A stretch of DNA of 64,000 nt from NCBI GenBank assembly GCA_002168225.1, contig NHBH01000009.1:785115-849114 (forward strand). Direction: 5' to 3'. Made by a program: the position numbers and the translations under genes. Positions 1 to 57,549 of the stretch are shown here, piece after piece. Source of the DNA: Micavibrio sp. TMED2. Lineage in GTDB: Bacteria; Pseudomonadota; Alphaproteobacteria; TMED2. The first letter of the stretch is position 1. The number at the start of each line of letters is the position of its first letter. The notes beneath the pieces were generated by a model. The model was not told where the DNA came from, made no database searches, and saw only the letters and a program-made list of their open reading frames with translations.

Positions 1-677
1 GCACGCTGCTGCATCTGATCGACAAGGTCATTCTGTGGCTGTTCGTGGTTGAGCTTGGCATCCGCTTCTTTGTTCACCGGATGCGCTTTTTCCGTGACGG
101 CTGGCGGCTGTTTGATGCCGCCGTGATCGGCATTTCCTTTGTCCCCGATGGCGGCGCACTGTCGATCCTGCGGGCGCTGCGCGTCTTGCGGGTGCTGCGC
201 GTGGTCTCCGTGGTGCCATCCATGCGACGGGTCGTCTCCGGCCTGCTGGCGGCGCTGCCGGGTATGGCTTCGATCATCGGGCTGATGACCGTGTTCTTCT
301 ATGTCGCCTCGGTCATGGCGACCAAGCTGTTCGGCCATACCAACCCGGAACTGTTCGGCGATCTGCCCAACAGTGCCTACAGCCTGTTTCAGGTCATGAC
401 GCTCGAGGGCTGGGCCGCTGATGTGGTCAACCCGGTTATGGTGTACCATCCCTATGCTTGGGCATTTTTCGTGCCGTTCATCCTGTTCGCCACCTTCACC
501 ATGCTGAACCTGTTCATTGCGGTGATGGTCAGTGCGATCCAGATCGAGCAGCATGAATTCGAGGAAGAAATCGAGGCGATTGCCCATGGCGAGGGCGACC
601 GGGTGCTGGCTGAAATGGCAGCAATCCGCGCACAGCTGGACCGGTTGGAACAGATGGGGCAGGCAGGTAAATCATGA
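1..677 (+). CDS. Voltage-gated ion channel of the bacterial NaV (BacNaV/NaChBac-like) family. 5' end is cut by the window edge; S3 to the C-terminus is present.
   Basis: S4 voltage sensor with Arg at every third position (RALRVLRVLRVV). S5, a pore helix and the filter FQVMTLEGWA are present. S6 (FVPFILFATFTMLNLFIAVMV) and a C-terminal coiled-coil neck (EEEIEAIAHG...RAQLDRLEQ) follow. The stop TGA (675-677) overlaps the next gene's ATG (674-676). Confidence 0.8.
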   Translation, partial: TLLHLIDKVILWLFVVELGIRFFVHRMRFFRDGWRLFDAAVIGISFVPDGGALSILRALRVLRVLRVVSVVPSMRRVVSGLLAALPGMASIIGLMTVFFYVASVMATKLFGHTNPELFGDLPNSAYSLFQVMTLEGWAADVVNPVMVYHPYAWAFFVPFILFATFTMLNLFIAVMVSAIQIEQHEFEEEIEAIAHGEGDRVLAEMAAIRAQLDRLEQMGQAGKS

Positions 678-1549
678 GCGATGCAACACAATCAGGTCCG
701 GGCCAGCGCTTTGACGGCAGCGACAGCTATGTGACCACGCCGGATCTGGCTGTGGCGGTGAATGCCGCGATTGCCCTTGAACGCCCCTTGCTGATCAAGG
801 GCGAGCCGGGGACCGGCAAGACCGTTCTGGCCCGCGAGGTTGCCGCGAGCCTCGGTGCGCCGCTGATCGAATGGCATGTGAAATCCACCACCAAGGCTCA
901 GCATGGCCTCTATGAATATGACGCCGTGCGCCGGTTGCGTGATGGCCAGCTCGGTGAAGAGCGGGTGCATGACATCGGCAATTACATTGTGCGTGGCAAG
1001 CTGTGGGAAGCGCTCGACAGTGAGGTGCGCCCGGTTCTGTTGATCGATGAGATCGACAAGGCCGATATCGAGTTCCCCAATGATCTGCTGCAGGAACTCG
1101 ACCGTATGGAGTTCTATGTCCACGAGACACAGCAGACGGTGACGGCCAAAAACCGGCCGATTGTCTTCATCACCTCGAATAACGAGAAGGAGCTGCCCGA
1201 CGCCTTTCTGCGCCGCTGTTTCTTCCACTATATCCGGTTCCCCGAGCCGGAGGTCATGGCCTCCATCGTCGATGTGCATTTTCCAAATCTGCGCGACCGG
1301 CTGTTGCAGGAAGCGCTGACGGTTTTCTATGAACTGCGTGAGATACCGGGCCTGAAAAAGCCGCCATCCACATCCGAACTGCTCGACTGGATCAAGCTTC
1401 TCATGGTCGAGGACATTGATCCCGAGGTGCTGCGCAATGCCGATCCCAAGACCGCCTTGCCGCCGCTCTATGGTGCCTTGCTGAAAACCGAGCAGGACGT
1501 CCATCAGTTGGAGCGGCTCGCCTTCCTGCATCGGCGCGAGCAGGGATAA
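674..1549 (+). CDS. MoxR-family AAA+ ATPase (AAA_5; CbbQ/NorQ/CoxD-like)
   Basis: Walker A GEPGTGKT, Walker B LLIDEIDKA, sensor region ITSNN, about 290 aa typical of MoxR. ATGA overlap with the upstream channel gene. Confidence 0.85.
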   Translation: MSDATQSGPGQRFDGSDSYVTTPDLAVAVNAAIALERPLLIKGEPGTGKTVLAREVAASLGAPLIEWHVKSTTKAQHGLYEYDAVRRLRDGQLGEERVHDIGNYIVRGKLWEALDSEVRPVLLIDEIDKADIEFPNDLLQELDRMEFYVHETQQTVTAKNRPIVFITSNNEKELPDAFLRRCFFHYIRFPEPEVMASIVDVHFPNLRDRLLQEALTVFYELREIPGLKKPPSTSELLDWIKLLMVEDIDPEVLRNADPKTALPPLYGALLKTEQDVHQLERLAFLHRREQG

Positions 1550-1618
1550 AAAACAGGCCGATGCGCATGGCATCGACCTGTCAGTTTGCAACCCTGTTGG
1601 TTTCTTGAAACCGGTTTC

Positions 1619-2287
1619 TTAGAACTTGTAGCCGACGCCGACGCCGACGATCCATGGATCGATATCCACATCGGCATTCACCCGGCCAAGGGTTGTATCA
1701 ATGGTCACATCGGTGTTGATGAAGACCTTCTTCACATCGAAGTTCACGAACAGATTGTCAGAGACGAAGTAGTCGACGCCTGCCTGCAGGGCAAAGCCGA
1801 AGCTGTCGTCATAATCGATCCCGGTAACCGGGCCACCGCCTGGAATATCGTCGCTGAAGAAGTGGGTGTAGTTGATACCGGCACCGAAATACGGGCTCAA
1901 CTTGTCCTTCGGCAGTGGATGATACTGCACGGTCAGGGTAGGTGGCAGCAGCCAGACATCGCCGAGGTCCACATTACCGACAGAGGTGCCGGTTGCCGTT
2001 ACATCATGCGGGGTAACCGCCGCGATCAGCTCAAGCGCGATGTTGTCGGTGATGAAGTAGGAGAAATCGACCTCGGGCACGAAGCTCTCATCGATATCCG
2101 TATCGCCACCGATCGGGCTGATGCTCGCATCTTCGCTTGGTGCCACCAGCAGGCCGCGGGCGCGGATCATGAAGTCACCAGCGGATTTACCGGTGAAGAC
2201 CTCTTCCGCCTGCGCTGTTGCCGGTGTGAAACCGGCAGCAATCAGGCCGGCGACGGCCGCAACCGTCAGTGCATTTTTCAGTTCCAT
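1619..2287 (-). CDS. ompW: OmpW-family outer-membrane beta-barrel protein
   Basis: Signal peptide MELKNALTVAAVAGLIAAGFTPATAQA. OmpW-like beta-strand pattern. C-terminal GVGVGYKF ending in Phe. Start trimmed to the internal ATG at 2287. Confidence 0.8.
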   Translation of the reverse strand: MELKNALTVAAVAGLIAAGFTPATAQAEEVFTGKSAGDFMIRARGLLVAPSEDASISPIGGDTDIDESFVPEVDFSYFITDNIALELIAAVTPHDVTATGTSVGNVDLGDVWLLPPTLTVQYHPLPKDKLSPYFGAGINYTHFFSDDIPGGGPVTGIDYDDSFGFALQAGVDYFVSDNLFVNFDVKKVFINTDVTIDTTLGRVNADVDIDPWIVGVGVGYKF

Positions 2288-2376
2288 AGTCTTTGTCCCC
2301 AATACGCCGCGTCGCAGGATGCAGGCGCGTGCCACATTTGATAGGGTCGTCATACGCCCGTCGTGATTCGTTTGTG

Positions 2377-2390
2377 TTGATACAGATCAA
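2377..2390. promoter_or_regulatory. Perfect FNR/CRP-family palindrome TTGAT-ACAG-ATCAA in the ompW / VWA divergent intergenic region
   Basis: Exact match to the FNR consensus TTGAT-N4-ATCAA. It lies about 95 bp upstream of the ompW ATG and about 85 bp upstream of the VWA gene ATG. ompW is a classic FNR-activated gene in enterobacteria. Confidence 0.55.
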
Positions 2391-2469
2391 TTTTTTGAAC
2401 GATCATGGACCATGCTGCTGGTCCCGTTGCATGGTGTGACGTGAATGCAGCAAACCCGAATGGCACAGG

Positions 2470-3657
2470 ATGTTTCCGACCTTCTTCTATCAACTGCGCG
2501 AGGCACGCTTGCCGGTCAGCCTGCAGGAATACCTGATGCTGATGGCGGCGATGCAGGCAGGGTTGGCACGGTTCTCTGTCGAGGAATTCTATTTTCTGTC
2601 GCGCGCCACACTGGTGAAGGACGAACGTCATCTCGACCGCTTCGATCAGGTGTTCGGACAGGTATTCAAGGGCATCGAGAGCGACGCCACCGGACTTGAG
2701 GAGATTATGGCCAGTCTGCCGGAAGAGTGGTTGCGGAGACTTGCGGAGAAGCATCTGAGCCCGGAAGAGATGGCCGATGTCGAGGCGCTGGGCGGGTTCG
2801 ACAAACTGATGGAAACCCTGAAACAGCGTCTGGCTGAACAGGAGAAACGCCATCAGGGCGGCAATAAATGGATTGGTACGGCGGGCACATCGCCCTTCGG
2901 TGCCTATGGCTATAACCCGGAAGGGGTGCGCATCGGACAGGATGAGAGCCGTCACAAACGCGCGGTCAAGGTCTGGGACCAGCGCCAGTTCCGCAATCTC
3001 GATGACAGCGTCGAGCTGGGTACGCGCAATATCAAGGTAGCACTGCGCCGCCTGCGCCAGTTCGCCCGCACCGGTGCGCCGACCGAGCTTGATCTCGACG
3101 GCACGGTGAAGGCGACGGCGGAGAATGCCGGGTGGCTCGATCTGAAAATGCGGCCCGAGCGGCATAATGCGGCCAAGGTGCTGATCTTCTTCGATATCGG
3201 CGGCTCAATGGACCCGTTTATCCGGTCCTGTGAGGAGCTGTTCTCCGCTGCCCGGACAGAGTTCAAGCATCTGGAGTATTTCTACTTCCACAACTGCCCC
3301 TATGAACGCTTGTGGCAGGACAATGCCCGGCGGCAGTCGGACACCGTGCCGACCGAAGAGGTGATGCGCACCTATGCCAGCGATTACCGGGTGATCTTTG
3401 TCGGGGATGCCGCCATGAGCCCCTATGAAATCAGCCATCCCGGCGGATCGGTTGAGCACTGGAACGAAACCGCAGGCGGTATCTGGCTGCAGCGGCTGCG
3501 TGAGGTCTATCCCAATTCGGTATGGCTCAACCCGGTACAACAGGATTACTGGCGCTATACCCACTCAACCCGGTTGATCAAACAGATATTCGAAGACCGG
3601 ATGTACCCGCTGACCCTCGAGGGGCTGGATCAGGCCATGCAGGTTCTCGGGCGGTAG
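2470..3657 (+). CDS. VWA-domain protein, CoxE-like; the usual partner of MoxR ATPases
   Basis: C-terminal von Willebrand A domain with a MIDAS-like motif VLIFFDIGGSMDPF. N-terminal helical CoxE-like region. Size and architecture match the NorD/CoxE/CbbO class. Confidence 0.8.
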   Translation: MFPTFFYQLREARLPVSLQEYLMLMAAMQAGLARFSVEEFYFLSRATLVKDERHLDRFDQVFGQVFKGIESDATGLEEIMASLPEEWLRRLAEKHLSPEEMADVEALGGFDKLMETLKQRLAEQEKRHQGGNKWIGTAGTSPFGAYGYNPEGVRIGQDESRHKRAVKVWDQRQFRNLDDSVELGTRNIKVALRRLRQFARTGAPTELDLDGTVKATAENAGWLDLKMRPERHNAAKVLIFFDIGGSMDPFIRSCEELFSAARTEFKHLEYFYFHNCPYERLWQDNARRQSDTVPTEEVMRTYASDYRVIFVGDAAMSPYEISHPGGSVEHWNETAGGIWLQRLREVYPNSVWLNPVQQDYWRYTHSTRLIKQIFEDRMYPLTLEGLDQAMQVLGR

Positions 3658-3733
3658 GAAACTTGCCTGTTGGCGCTTTCGATCGAGTGTGTGATTTCAC
3701 TGGCAACCTATCTCCCCGATACAGGAAGTTGCC

Positions 3734-5176
3734 ATGCCCAGCGCCCGCGAAGTTCGTGCAAAATTTGAAACCCTGATCGATGGCCAGAGCCGTCTGATCG
3801 AAACCCTGCAGAGTGAGCAGGAGCAAACGCTTCGCGCTGCCAATGAAGAGCGTACACCGGTTCTGGCCGCTGTTAAGAAACTTGCAGCAGCCCGGATAAC
3901 CGGACCGGATGGAGAGCTTGGCAAATTCAGTGCACCGAAGACCGATGCCCATGCCGCGCTTGATCCGGCGAAGATGTGGGCCGACCTCAATGCCGATAGC
4001 ATTGCTGCCGGTAAAGAGTACGCAGGGGTCAGGGAGCATGACCTCGGTCGTGACATGAAGACAGCGATTGATGATCGCAACAAGGCACAGGCGACTGCAG
4101 ACAACGCCGACAGCAAACGCAAGGGCCTGCTCAAGGTCGTTCAGCCGATCATTGAGGCAAATGAGAAGCTGAAGGCAGCTGGCAAGCCCGAAATCGGCAA
4201 GAACACGAGCACGGAATATGCCAGCGGCCAATATTGGCGTTATCTGACCGATCCAGATTTCCGTCAGGCCCGCTCAGCCATTGCCAAATATGAGAAGCTG
4301 GCGAAGGGTTATCATTTCCGTCCCGATCATACCGGCAATCCGTTTGATGATGTCGCGTCATATCAGGGGGCAGTGAAAGCCAAGGCAGCCGCTACGACAA
4401 AGGCGGAAGGGTTCCAGAACGAAATCAATGCCATCGGCTTGCGGGAACGGATGCTTGATGAAGGGCAGATTGCCGAACGGGTGCGCAAGGCTGTGGTCGA
4501 GCGAGCCGTTGATGCTGATTATGTCGATCAGCTTGCCCGGAATTTTCCGAAGGCCGGTGTCGCCGAGACCCTGCCGAATGCAGTCAAGGCCAAGGCTCTC
4601 GAGGCGGTTGCGACCGATCTTGGCAGCCAGATCAGCACCGCAGAGACGACCAAAGCCCAGCTTGAGAAACCGATGAGCAAGCTGCGCCGTGCCGGTGGTC
4701 GCAGTGTGCGCGTTGATGCCGATGACATTGCCTATAAGGTGACCGGCCAGAATGCGATGGCGCGGATGCGGGCATCAAATGCCGCATCTGTACGTGACAG
4801 TGTTCGCAGTCACCAGTTCACCGATACCTCCAGCGCCACGAACATGTATCTGCTGATGACCGTGGCCATTCTCGCTTCCTCGGACAATGATTCATACTTC
4901 AGTGCCAAACAGCTTGAGGCCAGCACCGATGCCCTTGATCAGGCCGGGCTCAATCTCGATGACCTGACCCCCGATGTCAGCAATATCGATGTTGCCCTGA
5001 CCGATACTGGCATCGACATCGCTGAATTTGATCTCAAAGGTGTTGATGTGGGTGATTTCCACGTTGATGTCGGCGGTATCGACAGTGGCATCGGCAGCAT
5101 CGACAGTGGCCTGTCGTCAATCGATGTCGGTGGTGGCATGAGCATGGGCGGCGGATTTGACAGCGGCGGTTTCTAG
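3734..5176 (+). CDS. Hypothetical protein. N-terminal coiled-coil/helical region; C-terminal degenerate Gly/Asp-rich short repeats (xIDxG).
   Basis: RBS AGGAAG 6 nt upstream of the ATG. No recognisable catalytic motifs. The last ~70 aa are repeats of (G/S)(I/V)D(S/V)G (NIDVAL, GIDIAE, GVDVGD, HVDVGG, GIDSGIGSIDSGLSSIDVGGG). The DNA shows the exact 12-mer atcgacagtggc twice. Confidence 0.6.
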   Translation: MPSAREVRAKFETLIDGQSRLIETLQSEQEQTLRAANEERTPVLAAVKKLAAARITGPDGELGKFSAPKTDAHAALDPAKMWADLNADSIAAGKEYAGVREHDLGRDMKTAIDDRNKAQATADNADSKRKGLLKVVQPIIEANEKLKAAGKPEIGKNTSTEYASGQYWRYLTDPDFRQARSAIAKYEKLAKGYHFRPDHTGNPFDDVASYQGAVKAKAAATTKAEGFQNEINAIGLRERMLDEGQIAERVRKAVVERAVDADYVDQLARNFPKAGVAETLPNAVKAKALEAVATDLGSQISTAETTKAQLEKPMSKLRRAGGRSVRVDADDIAYKVTGQNAMARMRASNAASVRDSVRSHQFTDTSSATNMYLLMTVAILASSDNDSYFSAKQLEASTDALDQAGLNLDDLTPDVSNIDVALTDTGIDIAEFDLKGVDVGDFHVDVGGIDSGIGSIDSGLSSIDVGGGMSMGGGFDSGGF

Positions 5177-5202
5177 TCGCTAGCCGTAAGTAATTCTGAT
5201 CG

Positions 5203-5958
5203 TCAGTAGCGGTATTTCGGCACGTCGTCCGAGCGGATGAGGCTTGCCACCTGACCGGTGAGGCTGTTCCAGCGGAATGCCTTGCGCCAGACCGTCGGCA
5301 CATGTTTCAGCGGGTTCAGCATGACCGCCAGAAACGGATACTTGCCGGGCAGGCGATCACAGATGATCAGTTCGACGAAGCAGTAATGCTCATATTCGCG
5401 TCCGAAGGCATAGTTGAAACCGGTTGCTTCCTTGGCCGGGTCTGGTGCTTCCTTGACGAGGCGGACCGTGCCGGATGGCGTTACTTCCGCTACCTGATTG
5501 GCGGCGGTCTCGATCCGGTTCAGGACGACACCGGGTATGCGTGCCGCCTCAATCGGCTTACAGAACCGCTCCCGGCTCTCGTGATCGGCAAAGGCAACGC
5601 CCACATAGCGGCGGCTGACCAGACAATGCCCCTCGCAGGAGGAATAGGTCAGGTAGCGCTTTGATTTCAGGGCACGTACCAGCGGTTCGACACCCGGCTC
5701 CACATTCTCCCAGAACCGGTCGGCATAGGGCGAGACGAAGTAATAGACCGGGTTGCCGTTCCGATCGAGACCGCCATTGATCCGGCCATTGGGCTGGCGC
5801 TTGTTCACCGTCTCGAAATACAGCTTGTGCAGGATTTCGTTGAGGGTTTCCGGTCGCTTTTCAATATCGATCTGTTCCCAGCCCGGACGGTCCGGTCCCG
5901 GTGCGACCTGCTCCGGCGGGTCGGCCAGTGTGGCTGGAGTGGGGAACAGTTCACGCAT
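5203..5958 (-). CDS. Hypothetical protein with no recognised family, convergent with the 480-aa gene
   Basis: Uninterrupted 251-aa ORF with an ATG start. Cys/His-containing segments (YSSCEGHC, EHYCF) but no motif I can assign. Confidence 0.5.
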   Translation of the reverse strand: MRELFPTPATLADPPEQVAPGPDRPGWEQIDIEKRPETLNEILHKLYFETVNKRQPNGRINGGLDRNGNPVYYFVSPYADRFWENVEPGVEPLVRALKSKRYLTYSSCEGHCLVSRRYVGVAFADHESRERFCKPIEAARIPGVVLNRIETAANQVAEVTPSGTVRLVKEAPDPAKEATGFNYAFGREYEHYCFVELIICDRLPGKYPFLAVMLNPLKHVPTVWRKAFRWNSLTGQVASLIRSDDVPKYRY

Positions 5959-8251: not shown

Positions 8252-8920
8252 ATGAGCGAGCTATTTCGAGAAATCGATAGTGAGTTGCGACAAGACAAAG
8301 CGCGCGAATGGCTGTTGCGATACGGCCCGCGCATTCTGATCGTGTGCGTGATCGGAATTTTTCTTGTCGCCATCGGCGTCTATCTGCGTGAGCAGGAAAT
8401 GGAACGCCGGGAAGCTGCGACCGCTGAACTCATAGGTATCGTCGGTGAGGGGCCGCGCCCGACCGACCTTTCGGTCGAGCAACTCCAGCAATATGTCGCG
8501 AACACCAAGGGCGAGATTGCCGCAATCGGGCAGTTCCACCTCGCCGGTGAACTGGCACGTGATGGTGATGTCGATGGTGCTCTCGCCAATTACAAGGAGC
8601 TGGCGGCCAATAGCGACCTGACACAGGAGCTGCGTGATCTGGCCTCGCTCTACAGCATCATGCTGCGCATGAATGACGAGAGCCAGACGGCGGATGCCCT
8701 GATCGCCGAGCTGGCCCCACTGACCGGTGCTGATGTTGCCTGGAACCTGACGGCACAGGAACTGACCGCATTGCTGCATATCAAGAACGGGAATGAAGAG
8801 CAGGGGCGTCAGATCATTGCCGATCTGCTCGAGGTAACGAACCTGCCACTCGGCATGCGTCGTCGCTTGTTCCAATGGACGGAGATTTACGGTGAGCCTG
8901 CCAACCCTGAACAATCCTGA
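8252..8920 (+). CDS. yfgM: Membrane-anchored TPR-like protein, YfgM-like
   Basis: Single N-terminal TM (ILIVCVIGIFLVAIGVYL) followed by a helical TPR-like domain. Conserved position immediately upstream of bamB-der, as in the E. coli yfgM-bamB-der order. Start trimmed to ATG 8252. Confidence 0.7.
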   Translation: MSELFREIDSELRQDKAREWLLRYGPRILIVCVIGIFLVAIGVYLREQEMERREAATAELIGIVGEGPRPTDLSVEQLQQYVANTKGEIAAIGQFHLAGELARDGDVDGALANYKELAANSDLTQELRDLASLYSIMLRMNDESQTADALIAELAPLTGADVAWNLTAQELTALLHIKNGNEEQGRQIIADLLEVTNLPLGMRRRLFQWTEIYGEPANPEQS

Positions 8921-10304: not shown

Positions 10305-11870
10305 ATGAGCTTCACCGTCGCGCTGGTAGGCCGCCCCAATGTGGGCAAATCCACGCTGTTCAACCGGCTTGTCGGCAAGCGGGTAGCGCTTGTCCATGAC
10401 ACGCCGGGGCTGACCCGTGACTGGCGGCGCGGCACCGGGCGTATCGGCTCGCTCAATTTCGATGTGCTCGATACCGCGGGGCTTGAGGACGAGCCGGACG
10501 AGAAACTCGCGGGCCGGATGCGGCTCAAGACCGAGGAAGCACTCGGCCAAGCCGATGTTGCGCTGTTCCTGATCGATGCCCGTGCCGGTGTTACACCGCT
10601 GGATGAATTCTTCGCCAATAAGCTGCGTCGTCACAAGATCCCGGTGATCCTGATTGCCAACAAGGCCGAGGGCAAGGCCGGGGAGAGCGGGTATCTCGAG
10701 GCATATTCCCTCGGGCTTGGTGAGCCGCTGCGCCTGTCCGCCGAGCATGGCGATGGCATGAATGTGCTGTTCGATGCCCTGCTGCCTTATGAGGCCGCCG
10801 AGGTAACCGAAGCGATCCGCATGCAGACCGAGATCGAGGCCGATGGCTGGGCTGATGTGCCGGAAGAGTATGACGGGGATGATGATGAAGACGACCTCGA
10901 CGAGATAATTGACGAGGAAGGCGAGGGCGAAGCGGTTAAATCCACGAGCGGCATGGTCCTGCCCGAGGGCGTTGACCCTGAGATGATGATCATCGACGAG
11001 GCCGAGGAAGCCAGCCTCGCGGATCAGCTTGAGGCGGAGTTGCGCGCCCGGCCAATCCAGATGGCGATCATCGGTCGTCCGAATGCAGGCAAGTCGACAC
11101 TGGTCAATACCCTGCTGGGACAGGAACGGATGCTGACCGGGCCGGAGCCGGGTATCACCCGTGATGCCATTGCCAGCGACTGGACCTATGAGGGCTGGAC
11201 CTTCAATCTGGTCGATACCGCCGGTCTGCGTCGCCGTGCCAAGGTCACCGACCGTCTTGAGCAGATTGCCAATTCGAGCACGCTCAACAGCCTTGATATG
11301 GCACAGGTGGTTCTGTTGCTGGTCGATGCCAATGAAGGGCTGGACAAGCAGGACCTGACCATTGCCCGCCGGGTTATCAATGAGGGGCGGGCGCTGGTGA
11401 TCGGTGTCAATAAATGGGACGCGGTCGATGACCGGGCCATGACCCTGCGCGGGTTCGAGGACCGGTTGCAGACCTCACTGACCCAGGTTGCAGGTGTGCC
11501 GCTGGTGACGCTTTCCGGTCTGCGCGGCAAGGGCCTCGACAAGGTGATGGGCGCCGTGCTGCATGTCTATCAGCGCTGGAACACCCGTATTTCCACCGGT
11601 CGCCTCAACCGCTGGCTCGATGGCATGATCGGGGCGCATCCGCCACCGGCATCACAGGGGCGTCCGATCCGGCTGCGCTATATGACCCAGATCAAGAACC
11701 GGCCACCGCATTTCGCACTCTGGTGTTCGCGCCCGAAAGACCTGCCCGAGAGCTATCGCCGCTATCTCCTCAACGGGATGCGGGAGACATTCGATCTCGG
11801 TGGTGTGCCGATGCGGATTTCCATGCGCAAGGCCGACAACCCCTACGCACACAAGGCCCGCAAAACCTGA
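10305..11870 (+). CDS. der: Ribosome-biogenesis GTPase Der (EngA) with a long acidic insertion between the two GTPase domains
   Basis: Two G domains (GRPNVGKSTLFNRL and GRPNAGKSTLVNTL) plus a KH-like C-terminus. About 70-aa D/E-rich insert (DGDDDEDDLDEIIDEEGEGE). Confidence 0.9.
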   Translation: MSFTVALVGRPNVGKSTLFNRLVGKRVALVHDTPGLTRDWRRGTGRIGSLNFDVLDTAGLEDEPDEKLAGRMRLKTEEALGQADVALFLIDARAGVTPLDEFFANKLRRHKIPVILIANKAEGKAGESGYLEAYSLGLGEPLRLSAEHGDGMNVLFDALLPYEAAEVTEAIRMQTEIEADGWADVPEEYDGDDDEDDLDEIIDEEGEGEAVKSTSGMVLPEGVDPEMMIIDEAEEASLADQLEAELRARPIQMAIIGRPNAGKSTLVNTLLGQERMLTGPEPGITRDAIASDWTYEGWTFNLVDTAGLRRRAKVTDRLEQIANSSTLNSLDMAQVVLLLVDANEGLDKQDLTIARRVINEGRALVIGVNKWDAVDDRAMTLRGFEDRLQTSLTQVAGVPLVTLSGLRGKGLDKVMGAVLHVYQRWNTRISTGRLNRWLDGMIGAHPPPASQGRPIRLRYMTQIKNRPPHFALWCSRPKDLPESYRRYLLNGMRETFDLGGVPMRISMRKADNPYAHKARKT

Positions 11871-55541: not shown

Positions 55542-55731
55542 GGGTAGTGTCCTCGGATTGGGGCTCGAAAGCTGGTGAATCCAGCAACTTATGAATAGGG
55601 CGGTATACATAATCGAAAATCCGCCACGGGTAAATTGCTGTCACAAGTGTAATGGTGGCTTGACTTCGCGTGGCGAACGGTGTGGTTTCCCGGCAATCAA
55701 TCCCTTTTCCGTCCAGACTTGGTAGCAATCA

Positions 55732-57549
55732 ATGACCATGCACGCCTATCGTACCCATACCTGTGGTGAACTCCGCGCCGATCATGTTGACGACACCGTC
55801 CGCCTGTCCGGCTGGATCAATCGCAAGCGCGACCATGGTCAGCTGCTGTTTATCGATCTGCGCGACCGTTACGGCATCACACAGGTTGTCACCACGGTGA
55901 ACAGCGATGTGTTCAAGGCACTGGAATCAGCCCGGCTGGAAACTGTCATCACCGTGACCGGCAAGGTGGTCAAGCGAAGCGCCGAGACCACAAACAGCAA
56001 TATCCCGACCGGCGAGATCGAGGTTCAGGTGCTGGAACTGGAAATCCAGTCCCATGCCGATACCCTGCCGCTGCAGGTCAATTCCGATGAGGATTACGGC
56101 GAGGAAATCCGCCTGCGCTATCGTTATCTCGACCTGCGCCGGGCCAAGATGCAGCGGAATATCGAGCTGCGTTCCAAGGTTATCTCGTCAATCCGCCAGC
56201 GCATGATCGATCAGGGCTTCATGGAGTTCCAGACTCCGATCCTGACCGCATCTTCCCCCGAGGGTGCCCGCGATTATCTCGTGCCGTCACGGGTTCATCC
56301 CGGCAAGTTCTATGCCCTGCCACAGGCACCACAGCAGTTCAAACAGCTGCTGATGATGAGCGGTTTCGACAAGTACTTCCAGATCGCCCCATGTTTCCGC
56401 GATGAGGACAGCCGCGCCGACCGTAGCCCCGGTGAGTTCTATCAGCTCGATTTCGAGATGAGCTTTGTTACTCAGGAAGATGTCTTCAATGCCATCGAGC
56501 CGGTGCTGCACGGTATCTTTGAAGAATTCTCCGACTTTTCCGGCACCAAGCGCGCTGTGACCAAGCCGCCATTCCCGCGTATCCCGTTCGATGAAGCGAT
56601 GCTGAAATACGGTTCCGATAAGCCGGACCTGCGCAACCCGCTGGAAATCGTCGACGTGACCGAGATTTTCGAGCGTGACGATGTTGAGTTCAAGGCATTC
56701 AAGGGCGTGATCGCCAATGGCGGCGTCGTCCGTGCTCTGCCGGTGCCCGGCGTTGCCGACAAGCCGCGCAGCTTCTTCGACAAGCTGAATGACTGGGCGC
56801 GCGGTGAGGGGGCTGTGGGCCTCGGCTACATCACCTTCGCCGATGGCGAGGGCAAGGGGCCGATTGCCAAATTTGTGCCACCAGCGGCTCAGGCGCAGCT
56901 GAAAGAACTCGCCGGTCTCAAGGATGGCGATGCTGTGTTCTTCGCCTGTGACAAACCGGGCGCTGCGGCCAAGCTGATTGGCGCTGCCCGCACCAAGATC
57001 GGCCATGATCTCGAGCTGATCGATCCGAACGAATACAAGTTCTGCTGGATCGTCGACTTCCCGATGTATGAAATGGATGAGGACACCGGCAAGATCGAGT
57101 TCAGTCACAACCCGTTCTCCATGCCGCAGGGTGGTCTCGAAGCACTGGAAAATCAGGACCCGCTCACCATCAAGGCGTATCAGTACGATATCGTCTGTAA
57201 CGGCGTTGAGCTGTCTTCCGGTGCCATCCGGAACCACCGCCCCGACATCATGGTCAAGGCATTCGACATTGCCGGTTATCCGGAGAGCGTGTTGGAAGAG
57301 CGCTTCGGCGGCATGCTGTCAGCCATGAAGTTCGGCGCCCCGCCGCATGGTGGTTCCGCACCGGGCATCGACCGTATTGTCATGCTGCTGGCTGATGAGC
57401 CGAATATCCGTGAGGTTATCACCTTCCCGATGAACCAGAAGGCGGAAGACCTGCTCATGGGGGCACCGGCAGAGGTTGAGCCAGAGCGCCTGAAAGAGCT
57501 GCATATCAAGCTGAACCTGCCAAAGGTCAAAGTAGCCGAAGCCAGCTAA
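55732..57549 (+). CDS. aspS: Aspartate--tRNA ligase
   Basis: Class II motifs [19 protein letters not shown]. Non-discriminating-type length of 605 aa. Confidence 0.92.

Follow-up and report, generated by a model that had tools for sequence, protein, structure and literature searches.

The window, as the whole 64-kb stretch of DNA analysed here is called, carries an ompW gene on the strand opposite to that of a MoxR-like AAA/VWA_CoxE gene pair, which it splits into two halves (674-3657). The genes and the predicted signals around the start of ompW are the following:

45-677, plus strand: ion-channel gene, translationally coupled with the AAA gene.
674-1549, plus strand: MoxR-like AAA ATPase gene, translationally coupled with the ion-channel gene.
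1552..1582, minus strand: terminator-like hairpin and T-run past the ompW stop codon (consensus scan only).
1619..2287, minus strand: ompW coding sequence, 222 aa, with a Sec signal peptide ending in AQA (Pfam OmpW, E=2.5e-53).
2288..2341, minus strand: predicted ompW 5' UTR of ~55 nt, with the Shine-Dalgarno sequence GGGGA at 2300-2296.
2342..2343, minus strand: predicted ompW transcription start site (TSS), placed from the -10 position.
2354-2349, minus strand: predicted -10 hexamer TATGAC of ompW, 22 nt past the box.
2377..2390: FNR/FixK-type box TTGATACAGATCAA, centre 2383.5, read on the ompW strand as TTGATCTGTATCAA.
2391..2469, plus strand: spacer from the box to the VWA ATG, 79 nt; its length is kept (79-80 nt), its sequence is not, and no VWA promoter is recognised in it.
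2470..3657, plus strand: VWA_CoxE-like gene (Pfam match), the divergent neighbour of ompW.

VWA is followed by a 480-aa ORF without a family match. The OmpW protein, which has 5123 homologues in a protein search, belongs to the OmpW/AlkL outer-membrane family: the Pfam OmpW match is full-length (PF03922, E=2.5e-53, residues 36-222) and a signal peptide is present, the N-terminus MELKNALTVAAVAGLIAAGFTPATAQA being read from sequence. The start at 2287 is backed by the GGGGA Shine-Dalgarno sequence, which is kept in relatives as GGGGA or AGGGGA 8-13 nt upstream of the ompW ATG. Several database OmpW entries begin instead at the ATG at 2353 (244 aa), within the predicted -10 hexamer TATGAC (2351-2353, minus strand), and one database entry has a VWA protein of 442 aa that crosses the box and the ompW promoter (L177, 3001-3141). 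Both public gene calls appear to be over-extended.

The sequence at 2377-2390 matches TTGAT-N4-ATCAA at all 10 of the 10 specified positions, so that the perfect FNR-type palindrome of the initial annotation is as described. Its claimed uniqueness also holds, with a single perfect occurrence on both strands of the 64-kb window (0.09 expected by chance), as does its placement in the 182 nt that separate the ompW ATG (2287, minus strand) from the VWA_CoxE ATG (2470, plus strand). The consensus sequences of FNR and CRP are well known to be distinct. The CRP core TGTGA-N6-TCACA is absent from this site, which has the half-sites TTGAT and ATCAA around a 4-nt spacer instead of GTGA-N6-TCAC, a distinction that also rests on PMC4886647. 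Since at least one perfect box arises in 8 of 100 dinucleotide-preserving shuffles of the window and the expected number is 0.09, the box alone is a weak, marginally unusual match.

Looser matches exceed expectation in the window. Boxes with up to two mismatches number 36 against 22 expected, the surplus sitting in coding DNA; only six of the 36 touch non-coding DNA, and none of those six looks functional. Two boxes with one mismatch are probably chance matches. That at 8771 lies within a coding region; that at 55719-55732, TTGGTAGCAATCAA, overlaps the start codon of the plus-strand gene aspS; on its other side is a minus-strand gene for a Zn-dependent alcohol dehydrogenase, toward which no -10 is present at +22. 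The predicted FixK regulon in PMC2908626 includes a 'zinc binding alcohol dehydrogenase'. Among the relatives of the window, L083 has a second perfect box (10623-10636) inside its ion-channel gene, with further boxes at L173 468-481 (one mismatch) and L177 609-622. The L083 box consists of codons for a conserved L-I-I-I-N of the ion-channel protein and is a coding coincidence; coding sequence can thus mimic the FNR motif.

What raises the box upstream of ompW above chance is that it is kept in orthologous loci. These were reached via contigs carrying OmpW homologues of 69-86% identity, and every intact one (7/7) has a box upstream of ompW:

L081: TTGATCTGGGTCAA
L083 and L084: TTGATCTAGATCAA
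L085 to L088: TTGATATGGATCAA
L089 and L090: TTGATCTGGATCAA
L091 and L092: TTGATCTGCATCAA

In an alignment of the seven ompW upstream regions the box is the sole invariant block, the mean column identity being 44%. Nine of its ten specified positions do not vary across the seven loci, and the tenth is changed, from A to G, in L081 only. The box is kept in L085-L088, which lack both AAA and VWA and have ompW divergent from a homologue of the 480-aa gene, and in L091, where unrelated genes lie upstream on the same strand as ompW and there is no divergent gene. The box tracks ompW, whatever the divergent neighbour. L082 is the sole box-less exception; its ompW homology starts at about residue 40 and lacks the signal peptide. 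At 1780-2070 of this contig the 5' part of ompW (82% identity) is replaced by unrelated DNA adjoining a beta-lactamase-family gene, which is either a real rearrangement or truncation or the product of a chimeric short-read contig. In L179 and L180 ompW has another context and the box is absent.

On the ompW strand, a hexamer beginning with TA is found exactly 22 nt downstream of the box in all seven clade loci (TATGAC in the window, and TATGAG, TAGACA, TACAAA, TAAAAC, TACATA and TAAGAG). Across the seven loci the 22-nt gap between box and hexamer stays fixed, while the box centre lies anywhere from 77.5 to 115.5 nt from the ompW ATG. Taking the hexamer as -12 to -7 places the centre of the box at about -41.5 of the predicted TSS, which would be a class II geometry. 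Centring at -41.5 is the textbook class II layout for FNR. A point against the promoter reading is that the clade hexamers (TATGAC, TAGACA, TACAAA and others) are without the usual terminal T. No recognisable -35 element is present in the ompW promoter, and the predicted RNA fold of the ompW leader is not significant, being no better than those of shuffles.

The same arrangement is seen more widely. Of the 80 loci that a scan of metagenomes with OmpW yielded at 38-75% identity, 77 have enough upstream sequence, and a box is present within ~260 nt upstream of ompW in 40 of these (12 perfect and 28 with one mismatch). Boxes with at most one mismatch occur in the rest of the same loci at 0.019 per 290 nt, giving an enrichment upstream of ompW homologues of ~27-fold. 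Among the 36 unique boxes, -10-like hexamers peak sharply at offset +22, where 14 boxes show xAnnnT and 11 show TA; no other offset exceeds 5 and 4, respectively. As these loci include many that are related, the metagenomic counts are descriptive and not independent. Genes of the Crp/Fnr family (Pfam cNMP_binding and/or HTH_Crp_2) adjoin ompW in six metagenomic loci. In L147, L151, L157, L163 and L171 the Crp/Fnr gene (~1400-2350, minus strand) is divergent from ompW, the box lying between the two genes or at the end of the pair; in L132 it is downstream of ompW (3468-4205).

Taken together, these comparative data effectively refute the idea that the palindrome is a functionless product of chance. 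The frequency of perfect matches in the window shuffles speaks for it, but in seven lineages the box has kept its position while the DNA around it has become saturated with changes, its spacing to a -10-like hexamer does not vary, and boxes are enriched upstream of ompW homologues in general, all of which makes a chance origin extremely improbable.

Very probably, the palindrome is a dimer site for a Crp/Fnr protein of the FNR/FixK type that serves as a class II activator of the ompW promoter. At low oxygen the active regulator would bind 2377-2390, centred ~41.5 bp ahead of the predicted ompW TSS at about 2342, where it would overlap the -35 position and contact RNA polymerase. This contact may compensate for a weak promoter with the -10 TATGAC and no recognisable -35, so that ompW would be induced when oxygen is limiting. 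What we infer is the TSS of ompW, that the regulator activates and does not repress, which regulator binds, and that oxygen is the signal. The link of an FNR/CRP-family site to ompW proposed in the initial annotation is upheld by the 7/7 orthologous promoters, the fixed 22-nt gap to the -10-like hexamer and the documented association of FNR with ompW.

No candidate for the regulator gene was found in the window. Proteins of the Crp/Fnr family are usually ~230-260 aa long. A Pfam scan of ten ORFs of the window (206-605 aa), including seven of ~230-260 aa, gave no Crp/Fnr gene, and phmmer gave none among all ORFs with E. coli CRP and FNR as probes. It is possible, though less likely than not, that a site of this type is bound by a FixLJ-dependent paralogue of the FixK type, or by an NO-responsive one of the Dnr/NnrR type, instead of an oxygen-sensing [4Fe-4S] FNR/FnrL protein. 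The targets of FNR, FixK and DNR are practically indistinguishable in alphaproteobacteria, and species carry differing combinations of the three (PMC2908626); the phylogenetic profile in the same study, however, puts ompW in the FNR group and not with FixK or DNR, and FnrL is the protein that binds in R. sphaeroides. A FixK or Dnr protein would be compatible with class II activation of ompW, since it concerns only which member of the family binds.

A connection between FNR and ompW has been described in several bacteria. Dufour et al. 2010 (PMC2908626) predicted ompW to be in the core FNR regulon of the alphaproteobacteria. In R. sphaeroides the promoter of ompW (RSP2507), TTGACgcagATCAA, is bound by FnrL and ompW expression is lower aerobically (PMC2908626). 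The window resembles R. sphaeroides, also an alphaproteobacterium, in that an FNR-type box precedes a gene of the OmpW family, and the class-wide association of PMC2908626 is seen here too. It differs in that the box is a perfect palindrome, that the lineage is uncultured and marine, that binding and the oxygen response are predicted from sequence, and that ompW sits between the halves of a MoxR-like AAA/VWA pair. The ccoN gene is a canonical target of FNR. In Sphingopyxis granuli TFA, as here, ompW is one of two divergent genes with an Fnr box between them. For Sphingopyxis, shared use of the box has been proposed (PMC7713065); the partner there is ccoN, whereas here it is a VWA gene whose orthologues elsewhere are without the box. 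In Dinoroseobacter shibae, ompW is reported with the largest log2 fold change in transcription that depends on FnrL (PMC5398030), an experimental result from a cultured member of the Rhodobacterales.

The statement of the initial annotation that FNR activates ompW in enterobacteria is documented for E. coli, in which ompW is induced on a shift to anaerobiosis by direct binding of FNR (Xiao et al. 2016, PMC4886647). At the E. coli promoter FNR activates from a site at -81.5 and represses from another at -126.5, CRP has a site at -42.5, and ArcA and NarL provide further inputs (PMC4886647). TTGAT-N4-ATCAA-like FNR sites at the ompW promoter are common to both; the window, in contrast, has one site at a predicted -41.5 in the classical class II layout. 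As the activating FNR site of E. coli is at -81.5, the geometry is not simply transferable from that organism.

The initial annotation further proposed that the same site controls the VWA gene and the 480-aa gene, and here the evidence points the other way. A scan with the VWA protein, one genome per species, gave 80 alphaproteobacterial loci (L001-L080) of 63-71% identity. An ompW homologue is near VWA in 0 of the 80, and a box with at most one mismatch is found within 400 nt upstream of VWA in 0 of these 80 loci without ompW, so the box is not a property of the VWA gene. Neither does the VWA side carry a counterpart of the ompW promoter. In the five lineages that share this arrangement (the window, L081, L083, L089 and L092), the mirrored +22 position reads TGCTGC, GGGTGT, GCGGCA, TGCGGC or TGGTGC, and no hexamer among these resembles a -10. 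No positionally conserved VWA -10 or -35 was found there, TTGCA/GCAAC motifs being present at shifting offsets. Control of VWA by the box thus finds no backing in the boxless VWA loci, in the persistence of the box where VWA is missing or in the mirrored position.

The one feature of the VWA side that is constant is distance. In the five lineages the spacer measures 79-80 nt with an ungapped identity of 18-35%, and the box centre lies 86.5-87.5 nt from the VWA ATG, while the ompW leader there varies from 57 to 71 nt. Behind this constancy may be a constraint on spacing, a compact genome that keeps its intergenic DNA as short as possible, or, given the small number of lineages, chance. Within the spacer no conserved promoter, Shine-Dalgarno sequence or RNA structure is recognisable, and its fold is not above that of shuffles. 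Rfam has no match at E<=1 in the intergenic region and no family at the gathering score anywhere in the window. Nearly all proteins from a VWA homologue search for more sequences of the clade belong to other clades and are at most 71% identical. The ompW-VWA intergenic DNA of close strains, at 99% identity, is uninformative; L178 begins inside VWA.

One site might nevertheless serve two promoters, the same dimer also activating or modulating VWA and the 480-aa gene and making both responsive to oxygen. The symmetry of a site between divergent genes would allow this, the distance from box centre to VWA ATG is held at 86.5-87.5 nt in all five lineages despite a randomised sequence, xAnnnT occurs at +20 on the VWA side in three of the five, and the Fnr site common to the divergent ccoN and ompW of Sphingopyxis offers a precedent (PMC7713065). 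Such shared control is unlikely all the same: none of the 80 VWA loci without ompW has the box, the box stays with ompW where VWA is absent (L085, L091), the mirrored +22 position is without a -10-like hexamer, and the 480-aa gene is part of a variable cassette that is missing in L176 despite 99% identical intergenic DNA. The constant spacing, moreover, comes from only 4-5 lineages and could be a minimal intergenic length instead.

A second way of tying VWA to the box is to read part of it (TTGATA) as the -35 element of a sigma-70-type VWA promoter with the -10 GATCAT (2401-2406), in which case the bound regulator would repress VWA. A promoter scan does return TTGATA-18 nt-GATCAT on the plus strand with 9 of 12 matches. 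The matching -10 is, however, missing at that place in L083 (...TTTTTAAGTCGCGCCC), L081, L089 and L092, and two such sites are found in the 1.3-kb region against 0.8 expected from shuffles, so that the match may be due to chance. A repressed VWA promoter of this kind is very unlikely.

The position of ompW within the AAA/VWA pair is itself unusual. The MoxR-like AAA/VWA_CoxE gene pair is highly conserved, with 63-78% identity across Alphaproteobacteria. AAA abuts VWA in ~20 of the 80 loci, so that an AAA-VWA operon is the ancestral state; in the others the two are parted by unrelated inserts of 0.4-5 kb, or AAA is missing within 6 kb, and the AAA/VWA junction seems to be a recurrent insertion point. 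One could imagine that ompW, together with its FNR-type promoter, was inserted inverted within the AAA/VWA operon and that the orphaned VWA came to depend on the same regulator, a scenario that we consider quite unlikely. If it were true, the kept 79-80-nt spacing would be a trace of spacing-dependent, bidirectional use of one FNR site, and the VWA half would be responsive to oxygen while the AAA half would not.

The 480-aa gene belongs to a cassette between VWA and icd that varies among strains, at these positions:

Window: 3734-5958
L083: 2058-6541
L173: 4283-7141
L176: 4189-5032
L085: 3579-5756
L178: 1161-5294

Strains with 99%-identical flanks have 0, 1 or 2 copies of an orphan gene of ~460-490 aa: there is one 480-aa gene in L177, like the window, there are two divergent paralogues in L173-L175, and there is none in L176. 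A more distant relative has three copies. With a copy number that differs between strains of 99% identity in the ompW-VWA intergenic region, the 480-aa gene is not a constant member of a VWA operon, and its proposed control through the box is not supported. The orphan paralogues are mutually 24-54% identical, and the family comprises 32 clusters among 1.84 billion representative proteins. The 480-aa protein has 0 matches in Pfam, NCBIfam and PADLOC. Its AlphaFold model is all-helical (pLDDT 69.7), and its tail is acidic and rich in Gly, Asp and Ser, with 'IDxG' repeats; a PDB fold search with the model returned only non-specific coiled coils, with a TM of at most 0.17. A 251-aa orphan at 5203-5958 (minus strand) is likewise without a family match. 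Copies of 65-69% identity adjoin icd in L085 and L091, and its presence or absence is independent of the 480-aa cassette.

In practical terms, the analysis corrects the public gene calls for OmpW (244 aa) and VWA (442 aa). It also counsels caution, symmetry alone being a poor ground for extending regulation to a divergent neighbour. More unusual than the site are two features nearby, the AAA/VWA operon with its halves set apart and the orphan cassette that varies among strains. As the FNR-ompW connection is already known in alphaproteobacteria, the site is an ordinary new instance of a described link. It adds one more FNR-ompW pair, from an uncultured, abundant marine alphaproteobacterium, and gives the link in this clade a conserved, predicted class II layout.
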